A stretch of 64,000 bases of DNA, taken from Lentisphaerae bacterium GWF2_50_93 (GTDB taxonomy: Bacteria; Verrucomicrobiota; Lentisphaeria; Victivallales; GWF2-50-93). The notes beneath the pieces were generated by a model, which saw only the letters and a list, made by a program, of their open reading frames with translations, did no database searches and was not told where the DNA came from. Numbering within the stretch: position 1 is the first letter of the stretch; every line of letters starts with the position of its first letter. Position numbers and translations under genes: made by a program. The stretch spans positions 44,791 to 108,790 of the forward strand of contig MHBI01000101.1 in the NCBI GenBank assembly GCA_001804815.1, read 5' to 3'. This document shows, piece after piece, positions 17,074 to 41,999 of this stretch.

Positions 17074-17126
17074 TAATATTTACAATACAAATATAATATT
17101 TATTTTAAAGCACATAATTAATATTT
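17074..17126. promoter_or_regulatory. Three TAATATTT direct repeats in the AraC/GH4 divergent promoter region
   Basis: TAATATTT occurs at 17074, 17094 and 17119 (spacings 20 and 25 nt) in a very AT-rich 99-nt spacer. Confidence 0.3.
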
Positions 17127-17147
17127 TTTACTGAAAGGAAAATATAT

Positions 17148-18635
17148 ATGTCGTTCAAAATTGCATTCATCGGTGCCGGAAGCCTGGGTTTCACAAGGAA
17201 GCTCCTTTCCGACGTCCTGACCGTCCCGGAATTCAAGGACATCAAAATCGGCTTTACCGACATCAACGCGAAAAACCTAGAGATGGTGGCGAAATTGTGC
17301 CAGCGCGACATCAACGCCAACAGGCTCAAGATAAAAATCGAGGCAAGCACCGACAGGCGCAAGATACTGAAGGATGCCAACTATGTAATCAATGTCGTCA
17401 GGATCGGTGGACTTGAAGCATTTGCCACGGACGTAGACATCCCCCTCAAATACGGCATCGACCAGTGCGTTGGAGACACTCTCTGCGCGGGCGGCATCAT
17501 GTACGGGCAGCGCGGAATCGCCGCCGTCCTCGGTTTCTGCAAGGACATCCGTGAAGTCTGCGCCCCAGACTGCCTACTCCTCAACTATGCAAATCCCAAC
17601 GCCATGATCACCTGGGCCGCAAATAAGTATGGCAAAGTCAGGACACTTGGCCTCTGCCACGGCGTCCAGGGCGGACACGGAATGATTGCTCAGGTCATCG
17701 AACTTCTGGTGAACAAGGACAAGGGCGTTAAAAAAGATTCCAAGGGATACGAGAAGGTCTCTGTCAAGGACGTTGACATCATCTGTGCCGGAATAAACCA
17801 CCAGACATGGTACACGAGGATCCGCTACAAGGGGCAGGATTGGACAGGAAGGATGCTTGAAGGTTTTGAACAGCATCCTGAATTCAGCAAGACCGAGAAG
17901 GTCAGAATCGACATGATCAAACGCTTTGGATACTTCAGCACCGAATCGAACGGGCACCTGTCAGAATATGTCGCATGGTATCGCAAGCGCGAAAATGAAA
18001 TCAAAGACTGGATCGACATGTCATCCTGGATCAACGGCGAAACCGGCGGATATCTCAGGGTATGCACCGAAGGAAGGAACTGGTTCGAAACCGATTTTCC
18101 GAAGTGGATGAAGGAGCCGGCAATGAAATACGTCGAAGATAAGCGCAGCCATGAACATGGTTCTTTCATTATAGAAGGTCTGGAAACAGGCAGAGTCTAC
18201 CGCGGACATTTCAACATCGTCAACAATGGATGCATCACTAATCTTCCCGACGACGCCATTGTCGAAGTCCCATGCTACGTCGATGGCAATGGCATCAGCA
18301 TTCCGCAGGTCGGCGACCTTCCGCTAGGATGCGCGGCCGTCTGCAGCGCCAGCATATCCGTGCAGAGGCTTTCAGTTGAAGCGGCCGTCAGCGGCAATGA
18401 CACTCTTCTCAGGCAGGCGATGATGCTGGATCCGCTCGTGGGGGCGGTCTGCAATCCTCCCGAAATCTGGCAGATGACCGATGAAATGCTTGTCGCCGGA
18501 GCGAAATTGCTTCCGCAGTATAAGGATGCGATAAATGAAGCGAAGAAACGCCTGTCAAGGGGAAATCTGATTCCTACAAGGCAGGGATACAAGGGGGCGG
18601 CCAGGCTGGAAGTGAAAGCACCTGAGAAGAAATAG
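17148..18635 (+). CDS. Glycoside hydrolase family 4 (NAD+/Mn2+-dependent alpha-galactosidase/alpha-glucosidase type)
   Basis: 495 aa with the motifs 'IAFIGAGS', 'NYANPN', 'LGLCHG' and 'AGINHQTW'. Confidence 0.85.
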   Translation: MSFKIAFIGAGSLGFTRKLLSDVLTVPEFKDIKIGFTDINAKNLEMVAKLCQRDINANRLKIKIEASTDRRKILKDANYVINVVRIGGLEAFATDVDIPLKYGIDQCVGDTLCAGGIMYGQRGIAAVLGFCKDIREVCAPDCLLLNYANPNAMITWAANKYGKVRTLGLCHGVQGGHGMIAQVIELLVNKDKGVKKDSKGYEKVSVKDVDIICAGINHQTWYTRIRYKGQDWTGRMLEGFEQHPEFSKTEKVRIDMIKRFGYFSTESNGHLSEYVAWYRKRENEIKDWIDMSSWINGETGGYLRVCTEGRNWFETDFPKWMKEPAMKYVEDKRSHEHGSFIIEGLETGRVYRGHFNIVNNGCITNLPDDAIVEVPCYVDGNGISIPQVGDLPLGCAAVCSASISVQRLSVEAAVSGNDTLLRQAMMLDPLVGAVCNPPEIWQMTDEMLVAGAKLLPQYKDAINEAKKRLSRGNLIPTRQGYKGAARLEVKAPEKK

Positions 18636-24088: not shown

Positions 24089-24502
24089 TTATATTCCGAA
24101 AGGATTGATAGCCCTGATTCCGGAATACATCTGTCCTGTATTCAAGTCTTCAGTCATTATAGAATCGCAACTGGCCATTTCGGCAGTGGCTATTATCCCC
24201 GCATCCCAGAAATTTATCTGATATAATTTCTGAAGCTCGACGCTTCTTTTGACTATATCTGCGGTAACGCTGACGGTTTCGAGATTCCCAAGAAGGGTTA
24301 TCTGCCTCATTATTACAGAGTGATCCTGTCCGAGCTTTTTAATTGCCACATGTGCATATTCCTGTAGAACCTGGGTGGAAATAACTCCATTCCCGTCCAA
24401 CATCAGTTTCTTTATCAAAGCAAGTGATAGGGACTGTTTCTTTCTGTCCCTGGAATCGTTCGCATAGATGATGATGTTTGTGTCAATGAAGATTTTTTTC
24501 AT
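24089..24502 (-). CDS. vapC: PIN-domain toxin (VapC-type)
   Basis: 137 aa. 'IFIDTNIIIY' carries the first acidic residue, followed by 'LQEY', 'FWDAGI' and 'MTED'. It lies 3 nt downstream of a small antitoxin ORF. Confidence 0.85.
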   Translation of the reverse strand: MKKIFIDTNIIIYANDSRDRKKQSLSLALIKKLMLDGNGVISTQVLQEYAHVAIKKLGQDHSVIMRQITLLGNLETVSVTADIVKRSVELQKLYQINFWDAGIIATAEMASCDSIMTEDLNTGQMYSGIRAINPFGI

Positions 24503-24505
24503 GGA

Positions 24506-24733
24506 TTATCTCTCGTGGATTTCATCCCTGTCGAACTTATATCCCGAAGGAGATCTTCCAGCTTTGGTTGAGGCAAGGCTTTCAAATTCGTCTGCAGTGC
24601 TTGAAGAGCTTGCGCTTCCGGTGATTTTTGATAAATAACTTCTCACAAGAGAGTTTAGTGTCGTATTGTTTTTCCTGGCGTATCTCCTGCTCTTTACAAT
24701 AAGCCCCTTATCTGCTGAAAGTGTGATATTCAT
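24506..24733 (-). CDS. RHH/DUF6364-like antitoxin (75 aa)
   Basis: RBS AGGAGG precedes the ATG at 24733. 'MNITLSADKGLIVKSRRYARKNNTTLNSLVRSYL' fits an RHH-type antitoxin. The 154-aa ORF in the track is an unsupported 5' extension. Confidence 0.7.
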   Translation of the reverse strand: MNITLSADKGLIVKSRRYARKNNTTLNSLVRSYLSKITGSASSSSTADEFESLASTKAGRSPSGYKFDRDEIHER

Positions 24734-25012
24734 ACCGTACCTCCTGTTGTCTATTATGTGTTGTATGTGTACAAATATATCACCTTGAATAATACAGACA
24801 AGGATTTCGGAAAAGAAATTAGAATATACATCGTAATCTTCCAAGGACTGACAAAGCACCTTCAGCTCGCGAAGCGTATACCTGCACTCTTTCTCCATTC
24901 CAGCACGTAATTTCTTGTCTTTGAGCAAATTAACGAAATGAGGTATATATTGAACTATGAAAAATACCATCCTTTGAAGAAATCATGATTTAAAAAATTT
25001 GGACAAATTTTT

Positions 25013-25972
25013 ATGCCGAACAAACAGCTTGACAGCTTCCTGAGCTATCTCCGGAACGAACGCCAGGCCTCGGAACATACTGCGGAAAGCTACAGAATGG
25101 ACATCGAGCAGTTCGCAAGGATGGTATTGAAGAAGGACATCCGAGAGAATCCCGAGTCCGTGAACTGGAACGATGTCAGCGTATTCAGCGCCAGGCTCTT
25201 CATCATGGAACTCCAGAAGAATGAGATCACCAAGACTTCCACGCTCAGGAAGATTTCATCGCTGAGATCATTCTTCAGGTTCATGGTGCGCGAGGAGTTC
25301 GTGAAGCAGAATCCATTCTCCGGACTTACTTCGCCAAAAAAGGAAAAACGTCTTCCGAAATACATGTCGGTGGATGAAGTCGGAAATCTCCTTGACGCAC
25401 CTGCAAAATTCTGGCAGACGGCAAAGGAAAACAAGACTTCAAAGGACGATGATTCCGCGAACTTCGCATCCGCCAGGGACTCCGCCATCCTTGAAGTCAT
25501 CTACAGCGGAGGACTCCGTATCAGCGAGGCGCTGGGAATCAACATAGGCGACATCGACATCATCAACGATATCGTAAAAGTAAAAGGAAAAGGCAAGAAG
25601 GAACGTATTGCAGCACTGGGAAAACCCGCCTCTTTGGCACTTTCAAGATATTTCAAGATCCGCGAAATCCGCAACTCCAGCAGCAGCCAGTCATCGCCTG
25701 TCTTTGTGAACAAGGACGGCTCAAGAATATCCTCCCGTTCATTCCAGAGGAATTTCAAGCAGTACCTGATCACCGCAGGCCTGCCAGCCGACATGACCCC
25801 GCACAAGCTGCGCCACTCTTTTGCAACACACATGCTGAACGCCGGTGCGGACATGCGGAGCGTGCAGGAACTCCTCGGACATGCGAACCTGAGCACGACA
25901 CAGATCTATACACATGTCACCGCAGAACGCCTCAAAGTCGAATATTCCAAGGCCCATCCACGGGCGAAATAG
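25013..25972 (+). CDS. Tyrosine recombinase, XerC/XerD family
   Basis: 319 aa. The N-terminal SAM-like domain has 'FLSYLRNERQASEHTAESY'. The catalytic region has 'HKLRHSFATHML' and 'LGHANLSTTQIYTHV'. Confidence 0.85.
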   Translation: MPNKQLDSFLSYLRNERQASEHTAESYRMDIEQFARMVLKKDIRENPESVNWNDVSVFSARLFIMELQKNEITKTSTLRKISSLRSFFRFMVREEFVKQNPFSGLTSPKKEKRLPKYMSVDEVGNLLDAPAKFWQTAKENKTSKDDDSANFASARDSAILEVIYSGGLRISEALGINIGDIDIINDIVKVKGKGKKERIAALGKPASLALSRYFKIREIRNSSSSQSSPVFVNKDGSRISSRSFQRNFKQYLITAGLPADMTPHKLRHSFATHMLNAGADMRSVQELLGHANLSTTQIYTHVTAERLKVEYSKAHPRAK

Positions 25973-26082: not shown

Positions 26083-27465
26083 CTATTTCAGCTCCGGCAG
26101 GTAGTCGGCCTGCAGCCTGAGCATGAGATCCAGGCATTTCTCCGCCTGCGACGGCGAGTCTACCACCGGATCAAGGAGGAGCGCCTGCAGCAGGAGCCTC
26201 TTCGATTTTTCGGCATATGCCTGCACCAGCAGCTTCTGAATCGCATTCTGCCGCCTGATCATCGCGGCAAATCCTTCCGGCAGTTCACCGATGGTCTCCG
26301 GATGCGCGCCGTCCTTGTCGAAGACGGCAGGCACTTCGACGCAGGCGTCCTTTGCGAGGTTCGCAATGTATCCTCCGGTATTGAGGACGTTCACCGCGTT
26401 CCTCCACTTCTTCCTGTCGAGAACCATGTCGCCTATCGCCGGGACCGCAAGCTCGCCGGACGGGCAGACAAACTTGTCGTCGAGCTTCCTTTTGCCGGTG
26501 ACATAGTCGTCGACGTAATGGCAGTGCTCGCTCTTCAGGAAGCTTTCCACATCGAATCCGTGCGGGCTGCCCCAGGAAGCATAGACATCTTCCGCGACTA
26601 TCGGCCTGTTCCAGCCGAAAACCTTCCTGTTCTCGACGCCGAAAAGCCAGCGCGGCTCGACAAGCTCATGCGCATAACCAATGTATTCGCCCTCGTGGTC
26701 GGCCGAAACTATTCCGACGACCCCGAACTTCTCGAACAGGTGTTTTGACACATCGTTCCCGAGGAGTTCCGGCTTCTCAGCCAGCCTCTTCTCGAATTCC
26801 TTCCTGAGATCTTTTCCGGTCTTCCTGTCGGAAATCCTATAGTAGGTGAAGAAATGGTTCATGCCTGCGGAACGTATGTCCAGCTCCTCGGATTTCCTGC
26901 CAAGGACCTGGCACACCTTGTGGATGAGCCCATAGAACCCATGGCACATTCCTACTGCGCGCACCTTGGTCAGCTTCAGGATGGCGGTCAGTATCCTGGC
27001 CTCGGGATTCGTGAAGTTGATAAGAGTGGCATCGGGGCAGATCCTCTCGATGTCCCTGCATATCGGGATTATGATGTTGTAGTTCCTGAGAGCATGGAAA
27101 AGCGCACCCGGCCCGCCGTTCTCACCGAACACGTGCTTCATGCCGAAACTGAACGGGATCCTGAAATCCTGCTCCCACAGCTCCATCCTCTTCACAGCCA
27201 CCGACGTTATCACGAAATCCGCGCCCTTGAGCGCAATCTTCCTGTCAGTCTCAGCGGAGAACTTCACTTTTGACTTCTTGAATTCCGCAACCCTCCGGGC
27301 ATAGTTGTACATCACCTTGAGGCGCTTCTCATCAATATCCACGAGCACCACATGCAGTCCGGCCGCGGAGACAAGCTCCTTCTCCAGCACGATATCGTTC
27401 ACAACCCTCCGGGCGAAATCCCTGCTTCCGGCACCTATCAGCACAATCTTGATATCATTCTTCAT
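26083..27465 (-). CDS. Glycoside hydrolase family 4-like NAD+/Mn2+ enzyme (second paralog)
   Basis: 460 aa with the motifs 'IVLIGAGS', 'NFTNPE', 'VGMCHG' and 'AGMNHF'. Confidence 0.75.
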   Translation of the reverse strand: MKNDIKIVLIGAGSRDFARRVVNDIVLEKELVSAAGLHVVLVDIDEKRLKVMYNYARRVAEFKKSKVKFSAETDRKIALKGADFVITSVAVKRMELWEQDFRIPFSFGMKHVFGENGGPGALFHALRNYNIIIPICRDIERICPDATLINFTNPEARILTAILKLTKVRAVGMCHGFYGLIHKVCQVLGRKSEELDIRSAGMNHFFTYYRISDRKTGKDLRKEFEKRLAEKPELLGNDVSKHLFEKFGVVGIVSADHEGEYIGYAHELVEPRWLFGVENRKVFGWNRPIVAEDVYASWGSPHGFDVESFLKSEHCHYVDDYVTGKRKLDDKFVCPSGELAVPAIGDMVLDRKKWRNAVNVLNTGGYIANLAKDACVEVPAVFDKDGAHPETIGELPEGFAAMIRRQNAIQKLLVQAYAEKSKRLLLQALLLDPVVDSPSQAEKCLDLMLRLQADYLPELK

Positions 27466-27491
27466 GGCAGTTCCTCCATATCTTAAAATAT

Positions 27492-28919
27492 TTATTTACC
27501 AAGCTCAGTTTTCGCCGTTCCAACAATCCGCGCAAGTTCCTCCTCAAGGTCGCGCGGGAGCGGCTGCGGCTCATGTGACGCGAGCAGCTTTTCCTTGCGG
27601 ACTTCACATTCCGATTCGAGATCGCCGGCGCCCTTCGCCTTCCATGCTTCATAGAAGTTCCTGTCGAGCATTTCCGGAAACCAGAGCTCGTTTCTGAAAT
27701 GCTCAGCCGTATGCATCTTGTCGATGAACGTACCTTTGGGTCCGGCTTCAGCCATCACATCGAACCCGAAGGCCTCATCCGAAAAATCCATCTTCCTGTT
27801 GACGCTTTCCACATATGATATTATTTCGTCCTGCAGGACAAGCATGTCGAGGGAGGAAGCCTGGTCGACACCGCAGATCCCCATGTGCCCGAAGATGTCA
27901 GCTCCTGCGGATGCACCAAGTGCGAGAGTGACTCCGCTCTCGAGCCCAGCCTGGGCGTCGGGCCGCTTTGAATCCGTGAGCCCTACATTTATATATACAG
28001 GCAGGCCGTAATGCCTGCCCATCTGCGTCATCGCCACTCCGAAGATCGCCTGTTCCGGGCCACCGAATATAAGCTGTGTCGTGGACATGTCGAACGCATG
28101 GCATATTCCACCGTAGCATACGGGCATACCCTCTTTGACCAGCTGGGTGATGCATATTCCCGCCAGTATCTCGGCGTTCTCCTGCGCCATCGTTCCTGCG
28201 AGAGTCGCAGGCGCGGAAAGGCCTGTCTGCGCCATCGGCCCGACCGGCACCGGCATGTTCAGCTTCGATGTCTCGTACAGCAGATCGATCCCGTTGAACG
28301 GAAACGACAGGGGGCTGATCGGCTCAAGGAAAGGATAGCAGAGCGGTTTTTCAATTGCCTCCTTGACGCCTCCCCTCACAGCTACGACAATCTCGTTCAG
28401 ATATTTCGCCGAAGCCCTGTCATGGAACCAGAATGTCACAGGCTTCGCCGTGTTCCTCAGCATTTCCGCGAATACCGCAACGCACCGCCATTCAACAGGA
28501 AGTTCGTGCGGATCGGACATCGCGCCAGGTATCCCGATGTGTGGCAGCGCGTCAGCAAGCCGTACCGCCTTTGCTACATCCGGAAGCGTGGCATATCTGC
28601 GATCCTCGCAGGGTTTTTCGATCCACAGCGCCTCGCCTGCGGAGGAATTGTAGTTCCTGCCGCCATAACCGAACGATGCTGTGATGGAAGCATCACGTCC
28701 ATATAGCACATATTTCTTTCCAGCCGTGCCCAGGCATCTGCGCACAAGCTCCTCCGGTATGAAGACCTGCTTCGTGTTGAAATCCACCTTCGCGCCGGAA
28801 TCCATGAACCTTCCGAGCATCTCGTCGTGCGGAACATGCACGCCTATCTCCGACAGTATCCTCATCGAGACTTCGTGGATTTTCCTGATCTGTATAATGT
28901 CCAACGCCTGGCTTATCAT
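27492..28919 (-). CDS. MttB-superfamily (trimethylamine methyltransferase-like) protein, non-pyrrolysine
   Basis: 475 aa, uninterrupted. 'IRKIHEVSMRILSEIGVHV', 'EPISPLSF', 'SAPATLAGTMAQENAEILAG' and 'GGPEQAIF...DSKRPDAQAGLES' match the MttB-family pattern. Confidence 0.8.
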   Translation of the reverse strand: MISQALDIIQIRKIHEVSMRILSEIGVHVPHDEMLGRFMDSGAKVDFNTKQVFIPEELVRRCLGTAGKKYVLYGRDASITASFGYGGRNYNSSAGEALWIEKPCEDRRYATLPDVAKAVRLADALPHIGIPGAMSDPHELPVEWRCVAVFAEMLRNTAKPVTFWFHDRASAKYLNEIVVAVRGGVKEAIEKPLCYPFLEPISPLSFPFNGIDLLYETSKLNMPVPVGPMAQTGLSAPATLAGTMAQENAEILAGICITQLVKEGMPVCYGGICHAFDMSTTQLIFGGPEQAIFGVAMTQMGRHYGLPVYINVGLTDSKRPDAQAGLESGVTLALGASAGADIFGHMGICGVDQASSLDMLVLQDEIISYVESVNRKMDFSDEAFGFDVMAEAGPKGTFIDKMHTAEHFRNELWFPEMLDRNFYEAWKAKGAGDLESECEVRKEKLLASHEPQPLPRDLEEELARIVGTAKTELGK

Positions 28920-28931
28920 GTTGACCTCATT

Positions 28932-29990
28932 TCATAGCTTATAGTTCATTGCCGTCTCGCGCATCGCCAGGAAATTCCCCAGCGGCACGATGTCCGACAC
29001 TTCAGTACTCGATCCGACAAGTATCCTGCCTTCAGTATCCTCGATCGCCCTGGTCACCGCGTCGGCGACCTGCTGCGGCGTGCCTTCCGGAAGAAGGTGC
29101 GTGACATCTATTCCTCCGGCAAAAAAGAGCCTGGGATATCTCCTGTGGAGATCCTTCAAATCCATTCCGGCATTGACATCGATCGGGTTCAGGATGTCAG
29201 CGCCCGACCTGACAATGCTGTCCACTATTGGATTTATATTGCCGTCCGAATGGTACATGACCAGTTTTCCCCTGGCGTGCACTGCGTCCGAAAGCCGCTT
29301 CACCCTCGGGAAGAATTCCCTGTCCAGCCATTCCGGACTGAACATCGGACCGCTGTTGAAGGCGATGTCCTCGCCGATGAATACCGCGCTGCACGGATCA
29401 TCCTCCGGCAGAAGTTCGACCCATCTGCAGGCCTTCTCGGTGAAGAGTTCGAGCTGCTCGATTATCACGTCCTCGCAGTCGGCAAGATAATAGCTGAACG
29501 ACTCGAGCCCGACCTCGTCATACAGGCACATCAGCCCCGGAGTAGGTATCGAGAGCACATAATAGTAGTCCGGCCCGAATATCTTTTGTTTGTCCATCTG
29601 CATACTGTACCAGGAATCACCGGCGGTGCTTTTCATTTCCGAAAGCTCCCGGCGTGCCACCGCCATCTCCTTCCTCTTGACTGAAGCATATTCTTCCGAA
29701 GAGGAAAATGCGCGGTGCTCCGTCCAGGTGGTCCATCGCTGGTAGCTGACCCTCCTGCCTTCGGGTGTCACCTCATCCCTGGGCCTCTGCGGCGCAAAGC
29801 ATGCGAACCTGGTCGAATCGGTCGCCTCCGCCACGGCGCGCGCTGCGGCATCGTCATCGCCTTCAGGCACAGGTCTGCCGCCGTTGAAATGGCCGAGGAC
29901 CGCGTCGTTCGGAATTATATCGTACAGAGGCATCCTGTCCGGTTTCAATCCGGCCAGGAGCTTCCTGACTCTTTCATATGAACCTTTCAT
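28932..29990 (-). CDS. Uroporphyrinogen-decarboxylase (URO-D)/MtaA-like family protein
   Basis: 352 aa. 'FIGEDIAFNSGPMFSPEW...VMYHSDGNINPIVDSIVRSGADILNPID...GGIDVTHLLPEGTPQQV' fits the URO-D TIM-barrel family. Confidence 0.7.
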   Translation of the reverse strand: MKGSYERVRKLLAGLKPDRMPLYDIIPNDAVLGHFNGGRPVPEGDDDAAARAVAEATDSTRFACFAPQRPRDEVTPEGRRVSYQRWTTWTEHRAFSSSEEYASVKRKEMAVARRELSEMKSTAGDSWYSMQMDKQKIFGPDYYYVLSIPTPGLMCLYDEVGLESFSYYLADCEDVIIEQLELFTEKACRWVELLPEDDPCSAVFIGEDIAFNSGPMFSPEWLDREFFPRVKRLSDAVHARGKLVMYHSDGNINPIVDSIVRSGADILNPIDVNAGMDLKDLHRRYPRLFFAGGIDVTHLLPEGTPQQVADAVTRAIEDTEGRILVGSSTEVSDIVPLGNFLAMRETAMNYKL

Positions 29991-30016
29991 GATCGTTTCC
30001 TCCTTTCAACAAATCT

Positions 30017-30799
30017 TCACTGTTCGAGCCAAAGGTAATGGCCCCTGTCACCTACGTCGGCCCTCCAGTTGTTCTGGAAAGTCCTGCAGCTGCCATCTGC
30101 AAACACCACATTGTATTTCGCCTGGTAGCCTTTCCCGTGGGAAGGGCCCCATAACCGTTTCTCCCAGGCGCTACCCGCATAAAACAGGCTTGCATTCGAG
30201 TTCCAAAGCCCGTCCCACCAGTATCCCACCTTCGACGGCGGATAGAACGCATACATCGGATCATTGATGGCCCACACGGGATCCGGCGGCATCTTCGTTC
30301 CAAGCTGGGTCACCTTTCCTCCTGAAAGGAATTCCCCGTAATGCGGATGGGGCGGCGGACCGTTGGCGACAAGGTCGTCAGGACCGAATCCCGAAGTTAT
30401 GCCAGCCCTGGCGGCGGCGCTGTCCTGAAGATTGTCGGCGTCCGCACAGTTCTCTGCAGGGCAGTAGAACTTCCAGCAGTAGAGATCCTGCTGTGCAGGG
30501 GTCATCCCCTGAAGGCTGGGCATGATATAGTCGGCGATGGTGTGGAACTGCCAGGCTATGTCGCCCCAGGTACCGCCGTAGTAGTTGATCGGGAAATAAT
30601 CGTTGTAGTCGCCGATATACATGATCGTGGCAAGCCCCATCTGCTTCCTGTCGCTCATGCAGGCCGCCAGCTTCGCCATGTCCTTCGCGCTCTTAAGCGC
30701 AGGCAGGAGCATCGCCGCGAGGATTGCGATGATCGCAATTACGACCAGCAGTTCGATCAATGTGAATTTGTTCCTGTTCATCTTACCACTTCCCATCAT
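30017..30799 (-). CDS. Prepilin-type N-terminal cleavage/methylation domain protein with a DUF1559 / H-X9-DG-like C-terminus
   Basis: '[25 protein letters not shown]' is a type IV pilin-like leader. The C-terminal '[12 protein letters not shown]' is family-typical. Its start overlaps the upstream stop (ATGA); the actual start may be the Met at 30781. Confidence 0.85.
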
Positions 30800-33700
30800 T
30801 TTTTGTCCGGAAGGAGCAGTCCGAGAACGGCCATGGTCTGGGCCTGGTTCACGGAACCGCCTTCGTCCATGACTATCGCAAAATGGTTGTCGACAAAAGT
30901 ATAGAGGGATGCAAAATCCTCCCTTATCTTCGGGTATGCGGATTCCTGTATCCTGTAGCCATCACCCGCCTGTACCGGCCCTTCGACCTGCTGTCCGTCT
31001 GCAACTTCTCCGGAAGTCCCGTAGCGGCTGTTGTGGAGCGGGGCGCGCACAGTCCTTTCACCGGCGCCGACTATATAGCTGCGGCAAAGCGGATTCGCCC
31101 CGAAGGTATTGTCGCAGGTCCTGACCATCCAGTAGAAATATTTCCTGTCACCGGTCATCTTGTATGCCTGGATCACGGGATTGAGGCCGTTCTCATAAGC
31201 GCCGGTGCCCCAGTTGATCGGAGCCCACGGATGCCTGATGAATGCATATGCCATGGTCGAACAGAACTGGATGAACAGGTCCGCCTTCTTGATGATCGCC
31301 TTCCTTATCGTCTCCTGGATCCTGGCGTCGCCCAGACCCGCTGGGCATGACACATATGCCCATGCGGCATCCTGCATGTCATACTGTCCATATACTTCGA
31401 TGTCCGCATCCGGCTTCCTGCTCCAAACGCAGAAGTCGAGGAAATCCTTATTGTATTTCCTGTCGCCTGTCGTGTGAAGCAGCTGCGCGGCGGCATAAGC
31501 CCTGTGCGGGGCGACATGGTATCCATAGAATCTTGCATCGGAGGTCTTCAACGGGTTCGCCACCGCCCATTCATAAGCCTTCACGGCCTTTGCAAGGAAG
31601 CTTTCCGCTTCAGCAGCCTTCCCGTTCGCCTTCCAGATGCGCGACGCCTGGGCCATCAAGCCTGCGAATATCAGGGAGCCTTCCGCGTCCTTCGCGTATG
31701 CGTAGTCGCCGACCCGGTCAAGTTCTGCCGTCTCTATGAAATTCGGATCTCCGTGCGACTCGGTGCCGTTGCGGACGCCTCCGTCCTTGTCCTGGAGATC
31801 AATCCAGATGCGCAGGGCCCAGAACGCCTCGTCGAGGATGTCCGGAAGCCCGTTGCCTTTTTCAGGGATGTTCAGCTGGCCGTCGAAAAATTTCTGCGGC
31901 GCCATCTCGTATATGTTCATGAGCTTCTGCGCAACCTCGTAATGGGCGCGCGGATTGTAGTCGCCAGCGTCATGGTGGCCGCCATATGCCTGTATCACGA
32001 CCGGCCGTTCCGTAGGATGCGGCATCGCAAGAGTCCTGATCTCGGCAGGTGCCAGTATGCGCGAATAGATCCTGAAGTCCTCAAGGAAAGCCCCTCCGGC
32101 CTCGTCACCTTCCAGGCATCCGACCTGCAGGACACCGGAAATCGTCGCGTCGAGTTCGCCGACGGTCTCAGAGCCCACTTGGACGCCATTGTCATAGAGA
32201 GACATGCATCTCGGGCTCTTTCCCACAGGTTCAAGTACCGCCACGATATGGTGCCATGTGTTGTCTCCGGGACGCCCCATCCTCACGGCGGGCAGGCTCG
32301 CGCCTCCTTTACCGGCCTGGAGCATCGGGACCCCCCACGACGCACCGAGGAAGAACCTGCTGTTCGGAACTTCGCCGAGGCTGAAGAATCCGCTGAATTT
32401 CTGCTTGTCCAGCTTTTTGAACCAGAATGCAACTGAAATTCCGTTTGCCGCGCTGATGCTGATATTCCCTTTCGCACCGTTCTTCACGCCGTCAAACGTG
32501 GGTCCGTAGCTCCTGCCCGCAGGAAACGCCTTTGGATCACTGTCTGAAAACCGTGCCTTCTCCACATTCGACATGAGATCCAATCCATGTCCCGACGAAT
32601 CCTTGAAGTCCCCATCGAACAGATAGCGCGCCACCAGCGCAGGATCCTTCACAAGCGCATCATAAGCAGGATCAGCCGAAGTTCCCGCCTTCTCGTATAC
32701 GATCTTTTCCAGCAGTCCTGGCAGCTCATGCTTCTCATTCCTTACCTGCGTGGTCAGTACCAGTCCGTTCTTGTGGCATGCGATCCTGCGCCAGTTCGAG
32801 AATGGCGGCTTCAGCTCTATGCCGCAGCGCTGCGCGAACACGCCGTACGACTGGACCTCAAACGCCTTCACATATGCATCATCGCCGATTGTAAACGGAA
32901 CGCTCCTCCCCACTCCAGGCACGGATATCACATAACGTCCGGGCGTCTTAAAAGCTGTGAAATCAAGCACGTATACGTTCTCGCCGGAATGGTCGACCGC
33001 GTAGACACCCTCGTCCAATTTTCCGGACATGTGAACCAGCTTAGCTTCGCCGCTGAAGACGGACGCGCCGCCTTTTTCAGGGACAACGTTGAACGACGGC
33101 GCCTTGTCGAAAGCGAGCGCCGGCCCCATCTCCGGAACGTTTTCCGCCTTCTTCGCGGCCGCCGCCGGCTTCGCTGCGGTTTCGGGCTCCTCGCCCTGCG
33201 ATTTCACGCTCTTGAGATTGTCCCAGAAATCCTTTTCACCTGACGCGCCGTCCCCTGCCCCGGCAGCGCCTGCCTTCAACTCAGGAAATGATCCCATCCA
33301 TCTTCCGAGATAGGCGATCTTGACCGGTGAATCAGCCAGGTATCCGATCTGGTTCACCTTGATCGAATCGCTGAAAGTCTTCGCATCGCCGAAAGTAATC
33401 TTTGCGGAATTCGCAGCGCTGGTCACCGACTTACCGACTTCCACGGAGATCGTGTCTCCGTCCTTGAACTTCTCTGAAAGCTGCAGGAAGACCTCGTGCA
33501 TCTGTATAGCCGTGAACGGCCAGCCTGCCGGAAGATATGTGTCCAGTTTGGAGAGCCTTCCGAGGTTCACGATCTTTACAGGCTTTCCATTGATGGAGAC
33601 CTTGTAGCTTTCCGGAACCGACGCGGCTTTGGCGGAAAAATCCGGGCCGAACTCGAGCTTAATCACGCCGTTGCCGGAAGGCATCAGCTGGCGGAGGCCG

Positions 33701-34209
33701 AGGACTGCGAGATCCACGGAGTTGTCGGGCGCAGGAGATGCTACCCCGGTCTTGTAGGTGAAGCTCTGGGCCGTGTGCGCGCCGGTAACCATTTCACCTC
33801 CGACTCCCTGGGCGACGACCGAATATTTCGAATTCTCCTTCATCGGGAAAGGAAGCTGGAGAGACACGATGGTCCTTTCGAATTTCGGGAAAGTCACCCC
33901 TTCAACCGCCTCGCAGTCGAGTTCCTTCTTCACCTCGGCCTTCACGGGCTTGACGAACTTGTCATACGAATAGTTCGGATCATCCTCGCTGATTATGCGG
34001 TATGCCATGGGATTGGCGCAGGAATTCGTGATGCTCATGCCGATCCCGATCTCGATCCTGTCAGAAGCAAGCGGCCTGGCATATCTCACTCCGAAGGAAG
34101 TCCTGACAGCGACACGGTTGTCGGCAAGCTGCCTGAAATCATCGACGCCCGCGCCATATGCGGCATCAAGCATGGAAATCATCATCATTACGGCAAACAG
34201 TCTTTTCAT
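30796..34209 (-). CDS. Secreted GH9-like protein with an Ig-like (CelD_N) module and a LamG/ConA-like insertion
   Basis: RBS GGAGG precedes the ATG at 34209. The signal peptide is '[19 protein letters not shown]'. Other motifs are '[19 protein letters not shown]', the '[11 protein letters not shown]' DAGD motif, '[22 protein letters not shown]', and '[19 protein letters not shown]' in the inserted segment. Confidence 0.65.
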
Positions 34210-34346
34210 TGGAACCTCCAACCATTTTTGATTTGCTTTGTTCTTTTGATGTATATTTTAGGCAATTATTATCTGTTATGCAAGCAATCTCCATTGGACA
34301 AAACACGGATAGTTTTGTATATTTCCGCAAAACAAAGGATATCAGG

Positions 34347-35231
34347 ATGAGAAAGAGGAAGCAGGACATAGTGTACCAGAAGCTGGCGTACAGGCTTTCT
34401 GAGGGGAATCCGTTCCGCATAATGGAGGACGTCTACAGCGATGGGGCAGACAAGGCTGCGTTCCACGACATGCATTTCGAAAACGAGATCGGCATAATGT
34501 TGAGCGGGAAGGCAAGAAGGTATTACTCTGAAGGACAGTACGACTGCGTAACCGGAGACGCCTGGACCTGCGGTATGTGGGAACCGCACGGGATCAGGAT
34601 ACTCGAGGAACCGTGCAGGATCATCATCATCGTGGTATGGCCGCCGTTCCTGGCAAACATGCATTTCCCCGAAGCTCCATCTGTCTCGATGCTCTCGGCT
34701 TTCACGCAGGAACAGAAGGTGTTCCATTTCAAGGATCCTGTAAGCAGGAAGAGCCTGATCGGCCTGTCAAATTCGCTCCTTGCCATTGCGTCAGACATGT
34801 CTCCGCACGCAACAGTAAGAAAAAGACTTCTGCTATCGGAGCTGATACTGCGCCTTATAGAGTCCGGCAGGGCAAGCCACCGCCATGCAAAGAGTCCAAG
34901 ACCATGCAAGCATTATTCCCTGATATCGCCCGCAATGGATCTTGTTTTCAAATCCAAGGCGCAGATAACCAACGTGGAGGCGGCCCGCCACTGCTCGATG
35001 GGCGAAGACCAGTTCGCCAGGACATTCGACGGCGTCATGGGAATAAGCTTTTCAGAATTCGCAAGAAGGCACAGGGTGAACGGTGCGGCCAACGCGCTGG
35101 CAAGCACGGATCTTCCGATAAAGGAGATCGCGAACGAATGGGGCTTCACCGACCAGAGCCACATGCACAGGCTCTTCCAGAAATACTACTCATGCCCGCC
35201 GAACGAATACAGGAAGAAGAGAAGCGGATAA
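34347..35231 (+). CDS. AraC-family regulator (cupin plus HTH), divergent from the GH9 operon
   Basis: 'IKEIANEWGFTDQSHMHRLFQKYYSCPPNEYRKK'. The start is placed at ATG 34347 (alternative 34278), because the listed 34158 start overlaps the GH9 gene start. Confidence 0.8.
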   Translation: MRKRKQDIVYQKLAYRLSEGNPFRIMEDVYSDGADKAAFHDMHFENEIGIMLSGKARRYYSEGQYDCVTGDAWTCGMWEPHGIRILEEPCRIIIIVVWPPFLANMHFPEAPSVSMLSAFTQEQKVFHFKDPVSRKSLIGLSNSLLAIASDMSPHATVRKRLLLSELILRLIESGRASHRHAKSPRPCKHYSLISPAMDLVFKSKAQITNVEAARHCSMGEDQFARTFDGVMGISFSEFARRHRVNGAANALASTDLPIKEIANEWGFTDQSHMHRLFQKYYSCPPNEYRKKRSG

Positions 35232-37815: not shown

Positions 37816-39165
37816 TCAGATCTCCCTGTTCAGGAAATCCACACTTTCCAGCTTGAGCCTTATCGCATTTGCGAATTTCGCAGCATCGGAGCCGTCCACC
37901 ACGCGGTGGTCGGCGCTTACCGTCACCTTCATCATGTCGCGGATCACGATCTGTCCGTCCTTCACCACTGGTGTCGGTGTCGCCGATGAGACTGCGAGGA
38001 TCGCAGATTCCCCGGGATTTATGATGGCCGCGAAGTTCTCGACGTTCAGCATGCCCATGTTGGAAATCGTAAACGTTCCGCCCTTCATCTCCTCTGGCTG
38101 GAGCTTTCCGGTCCTGGCCTTCTCTGCGAACTCCGCAACCTCGGACTGGATCTCGTCAAGCGCCTTCCTGTCAGTATTCCTGAGGACAGGAACGACAAGC
38201 CCGGTCTCGAGACTTACCGCCACTCCAATATTCACCTTGGACTTGTATTTCGCTGTGATTCCGTCGCTCTCGGCGTTCAACATCGGAAATTCCCTGAGGG
38301 CAAGCGCGACCGCCTTGATTATGAATACATTCACGCTCAGGCTGATCCCCTGCTCCTTCAGGATCTTCCGCTTTCTCGATACTTCGGTCATATCGATCGC
38401 GACCGTAACATAGAAATGCGGTATGCGCTGTTTGGACTCGGTGAGACGACGCGCAATGATCTTCCTCATGTTCGAGAATTCGCGAGGCTTCTCGGAAACC
38501 GCCGATTTGACATCGGCAAGTGTGACCCGTCCGCTGTCTCCGCTTCCTTCTATCGCGAGGAGTTCAAGATTCTCCTTCTTCGCCAGGTTGAATGCGGTCG
38601 GAGTTATCAGTTTCTTTTTGTAGCCGGAGCTTTCGAGATAATTCCTAACGTCCGCCTCCGTGACGCGTCCAACATCACCGCCAGTACCTGAAACCTTGTT
38701 CAAGTCGATCAGATAGTCCTCGGCGAATTTCCTCGCCCTGGGTGACGGTTTTGCCTTGAACGCAGGAGCGGATGGCGCAGAATACACCTGCTGAATCTGC
38801 TGAGTTGCCGGCGCCTCTGCGGATTTCGCAGCAGCAGCAGATGGAGCAGCTTTTGCTTCAACCGGTTTCTTTGCCTCTGCCTTCTTCTCAGGCGCCTTCG
38901 GCATTTCAATCTTCGGAATTTCCTCTCCAGGATTCCCGAGAACAGCGCATGTCGCCATTACAGGAACTTCCTTGCCGGCGGGAATAATTATCTTGAGAAG
39001 CGTCCCTTCGAACTGCGACTCGACTTCAAGTACGGCCTTGTCGGTCTCGACCTCGAAAAGGATGTCCCCCTTCTTGATCTTGTCGCCTTCCTTGACGCGC
39101 CATTTTTCTATCTTGACAGTCTCTTCGGACTGACCAAGTTTCGGTATCGGAACAAGAGTTGACAT
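37816..39165 (-). CDS. Dihydrolipoamide acyltransferase (E2) of a 2-oxoacid dehydrogenase complex
   Basis: RBS GGAGG precedes the ATG at 39165. The lipoyl domain has 'EVETDKAVLEVES', the E3-binding domain has 'PRARKFAEDYLIDLNKVSGTG', and the catalytic motif is 'DHRVVDG'. Confidence 0.9.
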   Translation of the reverse strand: MSTLVPIPKLGQSEETVKIEKWRVKEGDKIKKGDILFEVETDKAVLEVESQFEGTLLKIIIPAGKEVPVMATCAVLGNPGEEIPKIEMPKAPEKKAEAKKPVEAKAAPSAAAAKSAEAPATQQIQQVYSAPSAPAFKAKPSPRARKFAEDYLIDLNKVSGTGGDVGRVTEADVRNYLESSGYKKKLITPTAFNLAKKENLELLAIEGSGDSGRVTLADVKSAVSEKPREFSNMRKIIARRLTESKQRIPHFYVTVAIDMTEVSRKRKILKEQGISLSVNVFIIKAVALALREFPMLNAESDGITAKYKSKVNIGVAVSLETGLVVPVLRNTDRKALDEIQSEVAEFAEKARTGKLQPEEMKGGTFTISNMGMLNVENFAAIINPGESAILAVSSATPTPVVKDGQIVIRDMMKVTVSADHRVVDGSDAAKFANAIRLKLESVDFLNREI

Positions 39166-39185
39166 AAAAAACCTCCAGTTTTTAA

Positions 39186-39241
39186 ATTCGAAATCCGAAT
39201 ATCGAAATCCGAAACAATCGGAATCAAATTCGAAATCCAAA
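39186..39241. repeat. Array of 14-nt-period TCGAAATCCGAA words (left flank of the four-helix-bundle gene)
   Basis: TCGAAATCCGAA occurs at 39188 and 39202, a degenerate copy at about 39216, and TCGAAATCCAA at 39230. Confidence 0.85.
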
Positions 39242-39302
39242 ATGAATACAAACAATATTAATTTTCTGATTTCCTATAAATTGAGCCAAATATATTTGTC
39301 AG

Positions 39303-39695: not shown

Positions 39696-41999
39696 TTATT
39701 TCAAGCTCCTTGCTGCCGCAATCATGTCTTCGACGGACGGCAGGAATGCCTTCTCGAGCGAATACGCCTGCGGGGCTATTCCGTTCTTCGCGCCGACTTT
39801 CACGACAGGAGCATCAAGGTGGTCGAAGCAGTTTGCGGTAACCTGCGCGACGATCTCACCGGTAAAGCTTCCAATGTCGACACACTGGCTTATCGCCACA
39901 CAGCGTCCGGTCTTCCTTACGGATTCAAAGACAGTCTGCCAGTCGAATGGAACAAGCGTCCTGGGATCAATGATTTCTACACTGATGCCTTCTTCCTCAA
40001 GCTTGCTGGCTGCCTTGATCGCATCGACCACTGCCGGCCCCCAGACAACGAACGTCACGTCCTTGCCTTCCTTTACGATCTTCGCCTGCCCGAACGGAAT
40101 GAAATATTCCTCTTCCGGCACAACATCCTTGTTTCCATATAGGAGCTGGCCTTCTACGAACACTACGGGGTTGTCGTCGCGGATCGCAGTCTTGATGAGC
40201 CCCTTCGCATCATATGCGTTTGAAGGGTAGGCTACATATGTGCCGGGGATGTGGCAGAACATCGATTCAAGCGACTGCGAGTGCTGTCCGCCGTATCCCT
40301 TGCCACCGCCTACACTGCAGCGGATGACCATCGGGACTTTCACGTTGCCACCGGTCATGTAATGCCATTTGGCGGCCTGGTTGGAGATCTGGTCGGAAGC
40401 CATGAGCGCAAAATCCATGTACATCAGTTCGACGACCGGACGATATCCAGTCATCGCCATTCCAACACCGGTTCCGCATATGCATGCCTCTGAAATAGGA
40501 GTGTTGAATACGCGGCCTCGGCCGAAATATTCAAGGAACCCCTTGCTGAGCTTGAACGCACCGCCGTAGTCGGCAACATCCTCGCCGTACACGACGACAC
40601 GCGCATCACGCTCCATTTCCTCAAGGATTCCTTCCTTGATGGCGTCGCGGTAGTTGACCCTGCCCTCGGCATCACGCTTCACTGACGGACGTGCGCCCTT
40701 CTTATCCAGCTTCTGATAAACTGAAGGGACTTTTTCGCATGTGGTGTCAGCATACATATATTTGATGACGTCCTTCGGATCAGGATCGGCGGAATCAACA
40801 GCCTGGCGCGCGGCCTTTGCATTCCTGTCGCTGACCTTCTTCTCGAGACCGGCGAGGACATCTTCCTTGAATACGCCTTCATCCAACAGGCGTTTCCTGA
40901 ATGCCGTCACCGGATCAACCTTCTTCCATCTTTCCTCCTCGTCCTTCGTCCTGTACTCATTGCGCGGATCGGAAAGTGAATGTCCATAGTAGCGGTATGT
41001 ATCGAACTCAAGAAGGACAGGACCTTTCCCCTCGGCTATGATCTTCTTTGCCCTGGCGATAGCTTCGCGGACTGCCATGACATCCATGCCGTTCACGACT
41101 TCGGCGTGCATGTTGTCGTTGTCAAAACCGGCGGCCCTTCTTGCAAGACAGTCGACTCCGGTGACTTCACCGTCAGCGCGGCCAGTCATGCCGAAATGGT
41201 TGTTGATGATGCAGTATATGATAGGAAGTCCGAAATTTATGCTTGAGAGCTTCTTGTTCGTGAACTGGTCCTGAGCGGCCCAGTTGAGGGATTCGAGGAC
41301 GACGCCGTTGGCGTATGCCCCATCACCTGCGAAACAGCAGACGACCTTGCCCTTTTTATCCTTGTCGATGTCTATGCGCGAGGTCATCGCAGCTCCGGTC
41401 GCGATTGGAACTCCGCCGCCGACGATTGCGTTTGCGCCGAGATGTCCAACCCTGAAGTCGAAGATGTGCATGCCGCCGCCCCTGCCCTTGCCATAACCTG
41501 CTTCCTTGCCGAAAAGTTCTGCGATCGTGCGGAACACATGATCCTGCATCACGGCTTCAAGGAGAGCCTCGCCTGCGAGATTCGCAAATTCCGGACAGCG
41601 TTCCCTGAGTTCCTTTTCGCTCATCTTGCGGATCGCGAAATATCCCTTTGAGATCGAGTCGCCATGCCCGCGGTGCGTCGAGGTGATGTAGTCGGATATG
41701 TTAAGTATCGAACATGCTCCGGCGCAGGTGGCCTCCTGTCCGATCGAAAGATGCGTCGGACCGCGGTACTCGTAGTCCTTGATGCATTCATATGCGCCGG
41801 TGCGCAGCTTGAGGATCATTTCCTCGAACTCGCGGACGACCAGCATGCATTCGTAAAGCTCAAGAATGTCCTCTTTCCTGACGGCGCCATCCTTCAGGTC
41901 ATCCTTGATCATCCTGTTATACGCATAGCCTTCGATAGGCTGGAGCTTGTACGTGCGTTTTTTGAAATCCGGACCCAGATCGCTGTAATAGTTGCCCAT
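39696..41999 (-). CDS. 2-oxoacid dehydrogenase E1 component, fused alpha and beta subunits (TPP-dependent)
   Basis: 767 aa. The N-terminal half is E1-alpha-like ('GPTHLSIGQEA', 'FAGDGAYANG'). The C-terminal half is transketolase-like E1-beta ('FNTPISEACICGTGVGMA'). Confidence 0.9.
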   Translation of the reverse strand: MGNYYSDLGPDFKKRTYKLQPIEGYAYNRMIKDDLKDGAVRKEDILELYECMLVVREFEEMILKLRTGAYECIKDYEYRGPTHLSIGQEATCAGACSILNISDYITSTHRGHGDSISKGYFAIRKMSEKELRERCPEFANLAGEALLEAVMQDHVFRTIAELFGKEAGYGKGRGGGMHIFDFRVGHLGANAIVGGGVPIATGAAMTSRIDIDKDKKGKVVCCFAGDGAYANGVVLESLNWAAQDQFTNKKLSSINFGLPIIYCIINNHFGMTGRADGEVTGVDCLARRAAGFDNDNMHAEVVNGMDVMAVREAIARAKKIIAEGKGPVLLEFDTYRYYGHSLSDPRNEYRTKDEEERWKKVDPVTAFRKRLLDEGVFKEDVLAGLEKKVSDRNAKAARQAVDSADPDPKDVIKYMYADTTCEKVPSVYQKLDKKGARPSVKRDAEGRVNYRDAIKEGILEEMERDARVVVYGEDVADYGGAFKLSKGFLEYFGRGRVFNTPISEACICGTGVGMAMTGYRPVVELMYMDFALMASDQISNQAAKWHYMTGGNVKVPMVIRCSVGGGKGYGGQHSQSLESMFCHIPGTYVAYPSNAYDAKGLIKTAIRDDNPVVFVEGQLLYGNKDVVPEEEYFIPFGQAKIVKEGKDVTFVVWGPAVVDAIKAASKLEEEGISVEIIDPRTLVPFDWQTVFESVRKTGRCVAISQCVDIGSFTGEIVAQVTANCFDHLDAPVVKVGAKNGIAPQAYSLEKAFLPSVEDMIAAARSLK

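Follow-up and report, generated by a model that had tools for sequence, protein, structure and literature searches.

A conserved partnership between GH4 glycosidase genes and a non-pyrrolysine clade of the MttB superfamily, seen from an AraC-linked operon of a Lentisphaerae bacterium

Why should a gene for a methyltransferase of the corrinoid-dependent kind lie in an operon for the breakdown of a glycan? The question is raised by a 64,000-nucleotide stretch of the Lentisphaerae bacterium GWF2_50_93 genome (contig MHBI01000101.1, positions 44,791 to 108,790; the whole stretch is called the window below). Here, five tightly packed genes encode a GH9-like secreted protein, a pseudopilin, a protein of the uroporphyrinogen decarboxylase (URO-D) superfamily, an MttB-superfamily protein and a GH4 glycosidase, and a gene for an AraC-family regulator diverges from the first of them. 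A first-pass annotation of this DNA proposed that an MttB-family enzyme is wired into glycoside catabolism and that it works as a pair with the URO-D-family protein. The former proposal is strongly backed by synteny across phyla, but the latter is not: the evolutionarily conserved unit is GH4 and MttB with an orthologous AraC, rather than the MttB/URO-D pair. As to function, we regard the chances as evenly balanced that this is an AraC-controlled catabolic operon whose MttB protein, of a lineage termed here clade A, is a corrinoid-dependent demethylase acting on a methylated sugar-like GH4 product or on the glycoside itself, with the carrier encoded elsewhere.

The window MttB protein matches PF06253 over residues 7-473 (E-value 1e-81, 274.9 bits versus a cutoff of 25) and aligns over its full length with the structures of MtgB (9YCE/2QNE, 4.5e-60) and MttB (7XCL, 3e-56). 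These matches, together with the invariant residues described below, place it in the MttB superfamily (PF06253/COG5598). As had been stated, it is of the non-pyrrolysine type: the reading frame is uninterrupted, without an in-frame TAG, Leu314 aligns with Pyl334, and the score against TIGR02369 is 347 bits versus a cutoff of 525. With MtgB of Desulfitobacterium hafniense and with MtcB, MtpB, MtyB and MthB it shares full-length homology at approximately 29% identity, the PF06253 TIM barrel and a leucine at the pyrrolysine position. MttB of Methanosarcina barkeri (7XCL/7XCN), the trimethylamine (TMA) enzyme, is also matched over its full length, and its Gly110, Met249 and Tyr329 have their equivalents in G95, M229 and Y309; however, clade A has Leu314 for Pyl334, Gly or His at the position of Tyr364, and no MttC gene alongside.

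Clade A comprises more than 100 database clusters at 64-72% identity to the window protein and, among genome loci, 80 at 60-68% identity and one at 95%, the last in a Victivallis metagenome-assembled genome (MAG) in which the same URO-D gene lies upstream (L003). A protein of a Lentisphaeria MAG is 100% identical. The hosts are Lentisphaerota/Victivallales, Kiritimatiellae, Verrucomicrobiota, Planctomycetota/Phycisphaerae, Armatimonadota, Poribacteria, Latescibacterota, Gemmatimonadota, Glassbacteria, Firestonebacteria, Terriglobia and Spirochaetia, as well as Asgard archaea (Promethearchaeota and Hermodarchaeota). Clade A thus differs from the MtgB-type enzymes in residing in saccharolytic Planctomycetota-Verrucomicrobiota-Chlamydiota (PVC), Armatimonadota and Asgard lineages. 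It differs also in its partners, which are GH4 and sugar transporters, whereas those of the MtgB-type systems are a corrinoid protein, a second methyltransferase (MT2) and a betaine transporter.

The neighbourhoods of the 81 clade-A loci were surveyed by simple open reading frame (ORF) calling and searches with the six window proteins, and neighbours within 6 kb were clustered. Nearly all of these loci are MAG contigs, and those of related MAGs are not independent of one another. A GH4 gene lies within 300 bp of the MttB gene in 24 of the 81 loci and within 3.5 kb in 32; when only the 62 loci flanked by 1.5 kb or more of sequence on each side are counted, the numbers are 19 and 27, respectively. 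The loci also provided an internal control, as 35 GH4 genes were found in the 475 kb within 3.5 kb of MttB and none in the 659 kb further out. Both gene orders occur, often with 4-nt stop/start overlaps (L009, L033 and L090; in the last, a 72%-identical MttB relative is followed by GH4). The GH4 partners belong to at least four GH4 subfamilies (median pairwise identity 31%), and the pairing was found in more than 10 phyla. Given this taxonomic spread and the four subfamilies, a single inherited GH4-MttB arrangement is unlikely. MttB homologues are thus found beside GH4 and other carbohydrate-active enzyme (CAZyme) genes, and their pairing with URO-D is rare.

The regulator shares in this conservation. 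The window AraC protein has the C-terminal double helix-turn-helix of the AraC/XylS family (HTH_18, PF12833, 1.6e-22, 80 bits; HTH_AraC, PF00165, 7e-15, 55 bits) and a cupin-type N-terminus, the latter as a weak, below-cutoff match to Cupin_2 (4.6e-4, 20.3 bits). Its orthologues, at 178-222 bits, occur in 13 other clade-A loci, where they are mostly divergent from, and upstream of, GH4-MttB. The conserved unit is therefore AraC, GH4 and MttB; the GH9-like, pseudopilin and URO-D genes are lineage-specific additions.

The partnership reappears when GH4 is taken as the starting point. Orthologues of the window GH4 protein (50-71% identity) are widespread, and the three examined on long contigs (a 6.5-Mb contig, candidate division KSB3 and Sphaerochaeta; L091-L093) all share a cluster with an MttB-family gene. 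Each of these clusters also has an ABC transporter for sugars of the CUT1 type and either a ROK kinase or a NagC-like regulator, and most have a hexosamine-6-phosphate deaminase/isomerase. The MttB proteins concerned form another lineage, clade B, of 457-467 residues and approximately 20% identity to the window protein. Two very different MttB clades have been recruited beside GH4 genes.

Clade B was seen in L091 (5564-8398), L092 (5247-8374), L093 and L109-L116, in amino-sugar-type clusters with a NagB/AgaI-like deaminase and sometimes a CehA/McbA-type PHP metallohydrolase. Neither a NagA-type deacetylase nor a corrinoid protein was seen in the clade-B clusters. We also considered that the "Glucosamine_iso" neighbour might be a 6-phosphogluconolactonase, an idea prompted by zwf next to the operon, but this was rejected, as the NCBIfam models favour NagB/AgaI over Pgl (nagB 146 bits or AgaI 259 bits versus pgl 53 bits).

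The window GH4 protein has both domains of its family (PF02056, 7e-43, 146.7 bits; PF11975, 5e-31, 108.8 bits) and the motifs GAGS at residue 11, CHG at 174 and NH at 203, all invariant in 20 orthologues. From published GH4 structures, we take GAGS11, C174-H175 and N203-H204 to be the NAD and Mn ligands. It shares the two domains, a GxGS motif for NAD at the N-terminus and the metal-site motifs of Cys174/His204 with MelA, AglA, BglT, GlvA and LplD. In contrast to these enzymes, the window protein falls below every NCBIfam equivalog cutoff and belongs to a conserved pairing with MttB which has not been described.

What could clade A act on? MtgB binds glycine betaine by cation-pi contacts of Y97 and F356 and holds its carboxylate with R312 and H348, and all characterised enzymes for acidic quaternary amines share R312 (PMC13080624). 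Clade A has D352 in place of F356, Y309 in place of R312 and E96 in place of Y97 (an alignment uncertain by 1-2 residues, with Gln at position 96 in the Asgard members), and H348 is kept as H345, so that the MtgB-type motif is absent. Because three of the four betaine-binding residues are replaced, the clade-A substrate is probably not an acidic betaine. With its Asp, Glu, Tyr and His residues, the pocket would be fitted for a ligand rich in hydroxyl groups and/or bearing a protonated amine. When the transporters of sugar type, the GH4 partner and the hexosamine deaminase of the clade-B clusters are considered as well, a methylated sugar-like substrate is suggested, for which the evidence gives no choice between an O-methyl sugar and an N-methyl amino sugar. 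We weighed as candidates 4-O-methyl-glucuronate, aminoglycosides, methyl-inositol galactosides, arsenosugars, GPI/GIPC head groups and methylthioribose, and none was singled out.

The same residues can be read in another way. As Y309 matches Tyr329 of the TMA enzyme and the acidic E96 and D352 could bind a cation, MttB might demethylate a free, non-acidic methylamine (choline, a TMA-like compound or some other cationic osmolyte) unrelated to the glycan, with GH4 merely co-regulated and both enzymes serving small-solute catabolism. We consider this improbable, since both aromatic cation-pi residues are lost and the adjoining transporters are of sugar types (MFS_2/GPH, CUT1 ABC) and not of the BCCT or ProU types for betaine and choline. 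Moreover, four GH4 subfamilies and two MttB clades show the tight MttB-GH4 linkage, often with overlapping frames. It is true, however, that the characterised superfamily members all use N-methyl donors (PMC13080624, PMC8604678), that GH63/MGH-type osmolyte hydrolases lie beside MttB in L027, L037 and L055, and that four tandem glycerophosphodiester phosphodiesterase (GDPD) genes with an acyl-CoA ligase gene near MttB in Asgard loci would fit the breakdown of glycerophosphocholine or a lysolipid.

In Asgard loci (L048, L053, L063, L065, L066 and L075), the genes that recur around clade-A MttB encode an MFS_2 transporter, a deacetylase of the PIG-L family, an acyl-CoA ligase of the AMP-binding kind, a protein like the ADP-forming CoA ligases and 3-4 tandem GDPD proteins. 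They hint that a lysolipid, or else a head group of glycero- or inositol-phospho type, is broken down.

A methyltransferase of this superfamily would be expected to work with a corrinoid protein. The first-pass annotation reported no ORF with a B12-binding domain in the window and left two explanations, a carrier encoded elsewhere or a different way of working. The absence is confirmed, since no B12-binding domain was detected in the 64-kb window either by a search of all ORFs of at least 60 aa with a hidden Markov model (HMM) built from three corrinoid proteins and the regular expression DxHxxG...SxL...GG, or by Pfam scans of 36 window proteins. Nor did an Rfam scan of the whole window reveal a cobalamin riboswitch or any other family. 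However, the carrier is not simply missing. In three Promethearchaeota loci (L013, L017 and L064), clade-A MttB is flanked on one side by an MFS_2 transporter of the glycoside-pentoside-hexuronide (GPH, sugar) type and on the other by a directly adjacent B12-binding protein, after which come a homocysteine S-methyltransferase and an MttB paralogue. A candidate carrier (PF02310) and a putative MT2 are thus encoded beside clade A in these three loci, and none was detected in the window or in the other 78 of the 81.

A further case is L085, where alone among the bacterial loci a corrinoid protein was seen, and in which an MttB protein 55-56% identical to that of the window has the same pocket residues. 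The gene order (3357-16778) is AraC, MttB, Zn-ADH, GNAT, an orthologue of the window URO-D protein, RGL11-like, a second MttB, ThuA, DUF4432, Dak1, a URO-D protein with the His-Ser-Cys (HSC) motif, the B12-binding protein and GFO/IDH/MocA. That the gene of the first methyltransferase (MT1) may stand apart from its carrier follows from the precedent of MtgBCD of Ruegeria pomeroyi, in which an MttB-family MT1 uses a shared corrinoid module that is encoded apart and also serves methionine synthesis (PMC12478193). This shared module, with an MT2 making methionine, parallels the Asgard clade-A arrangement, although the substrate in Ruegeria is glycine betaine and no glycosidase is linked to it.

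It might also be supposed that the MttB fold has lost corrinoid methyl transfer in this lineage and carries out some other TIM-barrel reaction on what GH4 uses or makes; the ligand might be a keto- or amino-sugar intermediate, or the enzyme might stand in for NagA as an N-deacylase. The pocket residues have been replaced by Asp, Glu, Tyr and His, the clade-B/GH4 clusters contain a kinase and a deaminase but lack a deacetylase of the NagA type, 78 of the 81 loci have no corrinoid protein nearby, and the clade occurs in lineages that include aerobes. Such a loss nevertheless appears unlikely in view of the residues that were retained. In comparison with seven reference sequences (MtgB, Pyl-MttB, the Sinorhizobium 4YYC protein and four paralogues), E250, E289, Q323, A324, P237, G233, S356, T404 and W426, all invariant in these references, are kept in clades A and B. 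G95 corresponds to Gly110 of MttB, which touches the corrin ring through its cis-peptide (PMC9842639), and M229 to Met249. The clade-A neighbours in the three Asgard loci, the L085 relative and the precedent of corrinoid modules encoded elsewhere (PMC12478193) point in the same direction. Together, the invariant core, G95/M229, the Asgard loci and L085 argue for clade A being still a corrinoid methyltransferase, for which methylation of Co(I) is predicted.

QueG-like proteins (DUF1730, 4Fe-4S and HEAT) are encoded in L005, L014 and L089, in L005 and L089 immediately after MttB. The QueG family consists of cobalamin/Fe-S enzymes, and this neighbour may be either an alternative corrinoid partner or there by chance.

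The URO-D-like protein is a distant member of its superfamily. PF01208 is matched at 4.5e-8 (32.9 bits versus a cutoff of 23.9) by the C-terminal half only, and TIGR01463 (MtaA/CmuA) at 2.6e-9 (36.8 bits versus a cutoff of 235). A sequence search against solved structures gave only a marginal MtaA match (E-value 0.025), and a fold search was needed: the AF2 model (pLDDT 93.8) has MtaA 4AY7 as its best Foldseek match (E-value 5e-13, TM 0.67-0.70), followed by uroporphyrinogen decarboxylases, and the protein is thus predicted to adopt the UroD/MtaA TIM-barrel fold. With MtaA/MtbA (4AY7) it shares this fold and an MtaA-like N-terminus, but it is only 15-16% identical to them, is far under the NCBIfam MtaA/CmuA cutoffs and lacks the zinc-thiolate ligands. 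In place of the H-x-C...C zinc site of MtaA, it has H247-S248-D249 and S327-S328-T-E330, which, like G326, are invariant in 20 orthologues. As the ligands are invariably absent, a role as an MtaA-type MT2, as first assumed, is not established.

These observations bear on the idea of a dedicated MT1/MT2 pair, in which MttB would load the corrinoid and an MtaA-type URO-D protein would unload it onto an acceptor. Such a pair would agree with the distance of 12 nt between the two genes, with MtaA as the nearest fold and with the occurrence of URO-D orthologues beside clade A in L003, L016 and L031, at a short distance in L055, and within the cluster of L085 with its corrinoid protein. The orthologous group (352 aa, 46-64% identity; Kiritimatiellae, Verrucomicrobia, Phycisphaerae, Armatimonadota and Coatesbacteria) is nonetheless represented in just 4 of the 81 clade-A loci, and also occurs without MttB nearby, beside GH20 in L083 and among PHP, DUF1638 and sugar-ABC genes in the wider surroundings in L087. 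Furthermore, the thiol-activating H-x-C...C of MtaA/MtbA is invariably H-S-D...S-S-T-E, and in L085 it is the separate HSC-type URO-D protein that adjoins the corrinoid protein; other URO-D-family neighbours of clade-A MttB carry the HSC motif as well. The UroD superfamily, to which the O-demethylases OdmB and VdmB belong, includes not only methylcobamide:thiol transferases but also MT1-type O-demethylases (PMC10418091). We therefore give the dedicated pair a low probability. The URO-D-like protein is an accessory and no obligate partner of MttB; judged by its site, it could be a methyltransferase of either kind acting on an oxygen or nitrogen centre, or neither.

An HSC-type URO-D protein is also encoded in the Kiritimatiellae loci L031 (9400-14842) and L040 (3211-8505), where the opposite strand after MttB carries DUF1573, a serine-acetyltransferase-like gene, a MetX-MetW fusion and the URO-D gene, possibly linked with methionine synthesis.

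Returning to the demethylase reading, we infer the following scheme, in which the co-transcription of the genes, the direction and nature of the methyl transfer, the class of substrate and the part of the URO-D-like protein are all putative. AraC would control expression of the operon. The secreted GH9-like enzyme and the pseudopilin, both lineage-specific, would act on or capture an extracellular glycan. A small glycoside would then enter the cytoplasm and be cleaved by GH4 through NAD+/Mn2+-dependent oxidation-elimination, the chemistry of the family, for which the motifs are present. Next, clade-A MttB would move a methyl group from the sugar-like product or the glycoside to Co(I) of a corrinoid protein encoded elsewhere, a step proposed on the basis of the family chemistry, the retained core and the Asgard and L085 contexts. 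Its substrate would be neutral or cationic, such as an O-methyl sugar or N-methyl amino sugar, and not an acidic betaine. As the Asgard loci suggest, the methyl group might pass on to homocysteine or tetrahydrofolate (THF). The URO-D-like protein would be an optional accessory, either a second MT1 for methyl ethers or a step that consumes the methyl-corrinoid; its His/Asp/Glu-type site suggests an oxygen or nitrogen ligand over a thiol.

Several observations weigh against this scheme. More than half of the clade-A loci have no GH4 gene near MttB, and GH4 of the window type often occurs without MttB: among 79 metagenome loci an MttB-family gene (clade B, clade-A-like or other) lies within 3.5 kb in 10, and many have only an ABC transporter. 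Seen from the GH4 side, MttB is an optional add-on, as would be expected if the additional step were required for certain forms of the glycoside and not for others. The window and 78 of the 81 clade-A loci, within 10 kb, contain no corrinoid protein, reductive activase or pterin/homocysteine methyltransferase, and clade A is also found in lineages which include aerobes (Chthonomonas, Fimbriimonadaceae and Gemmatimonadales). GH4 itself gives no guide to specificity, as its PDB and NCBIfam matches are scattered over 6-phospho-beta-glucosidases, alpha-galacturonidase, alpha-glucosidases and alpha-galactosidase, all far under the equivalog cutoffs (the best NCBIfam score, for the alpha-galactosidase subfamily, is 282 bits versus a cutoff of 486). 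A clade-specific Cys/Cys/His zinc site for ether activation (C268, C273 and H274) was considered, but divergent members have Val268 or Pro273, and no zinc site is therefore proposed. Finally, to our knowledge a methylated sugar has never been shown to be a substrate within the MttB superfamily, whose characterised members, as mentioned above, all use N-methyl donors.

A wider proposal, which we advance tentatively and with some doubt, is that clades A and B would together be the missing oxygen-independent demethylases of O-methyl hexoses or uronates, or of N-methyl amino sugars. They would send methyl groups via a corrinoid to homocysteine or THF, with GH4 enzymes as dedicated partners, and the module would have spread horizontally among glycan-degrading bacteria and Asgard archaea.

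Methyl groups on sugars stand in the way of the usual catabolism. Their demethylation is known only from oxygen-dependent P450 systems (PMC6292453, PMC10033563), and according to a 2025 study of the porphyran locus in the gut, it has yet to be elucidated how anaerobes demethylate (PMC12316285). The P450 demethylase of 6-O-methyl-D-galactose in marine Bacteroidota is a possible functional analogue, as it too demethylates inside a glycan-degradation locus (PMC6292453, PMC10033563). However, it belongs to an unrelated family, depends on O2 and releases formaldehyde, whereas the window system would carry out O2-free corrinoid methyl transfer. The GH4-MttB module, present in more than 10 phyla of glycan degraders and joined in Asgard archaea by a corrinoid protein and a homocysteine methyltransferase, is a concrete and testable candidate for anaerobic sugar demethylation. 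If the reading is true, the MttB superfamily would extend from amines and betaines to carbohydrates, and polysaccharide degradation would be linked directly to C1 and methionine metabolism.

Whatever the substrate, a large MttB clade has been defined whose members are unlikely users of the acidic betaines of the characterised enzymes, and an unreported functional link between the GH4 and MttB families has emerged. What is new is that a methyltransferase clade of the corrinoid type has a pocket and a conserved partner not described before. Our literature search found no paper linking MttB-family genes with GH4 or glycan loci, nor one on MttB in these phyla, and no published description of the module. 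Clade-A genes now bear the annotation "trimethylamine methyltransferase", so that surveys of metagenomes may ascribe them to the metabolism of methylamines or betaines. Asgard "MttB-like" genes, currently read as quaternary-amine enzymes (PMC11291895), may serve sugar-linked and not amine-linked methyl metabolism.

The coordinates and strands of the six genes (Table 1) are exactly as first described, and so are the junctions, which in the sequence consist of an ATGA overlap of 4 nt (30796-30799) and gaps of 26, 12 and 26 nt. The operon-like packing thus holds. Shine-Dalgarno-like GGAGG/GAGG motifs precede the GH9, URO-D, MttB and GH4 starts, with GGAGG 6 nt ahead of the GH9 ATG at 34209. From this arrangement, the five genes are predicted to be co-transcribed. 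Promoter and terminator scans gave nothing beyond shuffled expectation that would define transcript ends, and the sigma-70-like matches found on both strands of the AraC/GH9 intergenic region (34228-34323) are given no functional weight. The same region (34250-34324) contains a 9-nt direct repeat, TGTATATTT, at 34250 and 34316, 66 nt apart; the two copies could be half-sites of the regulator or merely -10-like elements.

Table 1. Genes of the AraC-linked operon and the divergent intergenic region (window coordinates)
Feature	Position	Strand	Remarks
GH4 NAD+/Mn2+-type glycosidase, 460 aa	26083-27465	-	last gene of operon; PF02056 + PF11975
MttB-superfamily protein, clade A, non-pyrrolysine, 475 aa, uninterrupted	27492-28919	-	PF06253
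UroD-superfamily (URO-D-like) protein, 352 aa	28932-29990	-	PF01208
Prepilin-type (pseudopilin) protein, DUF1559-like region, 260 aa	30017-30799	-	TIGR02532
GH9-like multidomain protein, secreted, 1137 aa	30796-34209	-	signal peptide + CelD_N Ig-like + LamG + GH9
Divergent intergenic region, 137 bp	34210-34346		presumed promoter/operator
AraC-family regulator, 294 aa, divergent from operon	34347-35231	+	HTH_18/HTH_AraC

The family assignments of the first-pass annotation stood for PF06253, PF01208, PF02056/PF11975 and PF00759 with PF02927, all above cutoff; DUF1559 alone fell just below it. The GH9-like protein contains an (alpha/alpha)6 GH9 domain at residues 737-1086 (PF00759, 4.2e-24, 86.1 bits versus a cutoff of 27.7), together with CelD_N (PF02927, 2.7e-12) and LamG (PF13385 Laminin_G_3, 1.9e-11). 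The catalytic domain and the catalytic-base motif DAGD at residue 747 (HHDAGDY at 745) assign it to family GH9, while the catalytic acid could not be mapped with confidence. No GH9-like homologue adjoins clade-A MttB in the other 81 loci, and the protein is a front-end enzyme specific to this lineage. Other genomes have placed different front ends on the same GH4-MttB core, namely GH2-, GH38-, GH42-, PcRGLX-like, PL-like, GH63/MGH-, GH127, GH39 and sulfatase genes. The pseudopilin passes the cutoff of TIGR02532 (prepilin cleavage domain) and has a GspG-like N-terminus (1.4e-7), with N_methyl (20.9 bits) and DUF1559 (18.5 bits) both slightly under their Pfam cutoffs. Its homologues were found near clade A only in L014, L042, L054, L055 and L077, upstream of MttB in L042, L054 and L077.

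The base composition of the locus is distinctive, with 53-60% GC across the 26-34 kb operon region versus 38-53% in the flanks. Directly downstream of the operon (24089-25972) are a toxin-antitoxin pair, consisting of a PIN-domain toxin gene and a DUF6364 gene, and a gene for a tyrosine recombinase resembling XerC. The GC contrast and these downstream genes suggest that the operon was acquired horizontally, which fits the 60-72% identity of MttB proteins across phyla; neither a tRNA gene marking an island boundary nor a flanking repeat was found. One could go further and regard the five genes as no functional unit at all, adjacent only by accident of a recently acquired island, the more so as the GH9-like gene is not conserved beside the core and the pseudopilin gene is present in few loci. 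This seems to us hardly credible. Accidental neighbours would not account for the gene packing with its Shine-Dalgarno motifs, or for the recurrence of AraC-GH4-MttB in many phyla with 35 GH4 genes in the near flanks and none in the far ones; as the arrangement recurs in unrelated genomes, it is far beyond chance.

Elsewhere in the window, a formate-tetrahydrofolate ligase gene (FTHFS, 2e-245) lies at 10880-12526. Its product would fit the oxidation or assimilation of a THF-bound methyl group, but the gene is a common housekeeping one. Four long ORFs of 556-721 aa (1208-3073, 12993-15158, 43919-45589 and 55084-56775) have no Pfam match at an E-value of 1e-5 or below. A second AraC/GH4 module, without MttB, occupies 15284-18635: an AraC gene (16182-17048, minus strand) diverges from a gene for a 495-aa GH4 protein (17148-18635, plus strand), and another AraC gene lies at 15284-16147 (plus strand). 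This GH4 protein shows approximately 30% identity to every MttB-linked GH4 subfamily. On the other side, about 3-5 kb from the operon, the window encodes a fused E1 2-oxoacid dehydrogenase of 767 aa (39696-41999) and an E2 protein (37816-39255), and the same fused-E1 architecture is found upstream of GH4-MttB in L005, L014 and L089.

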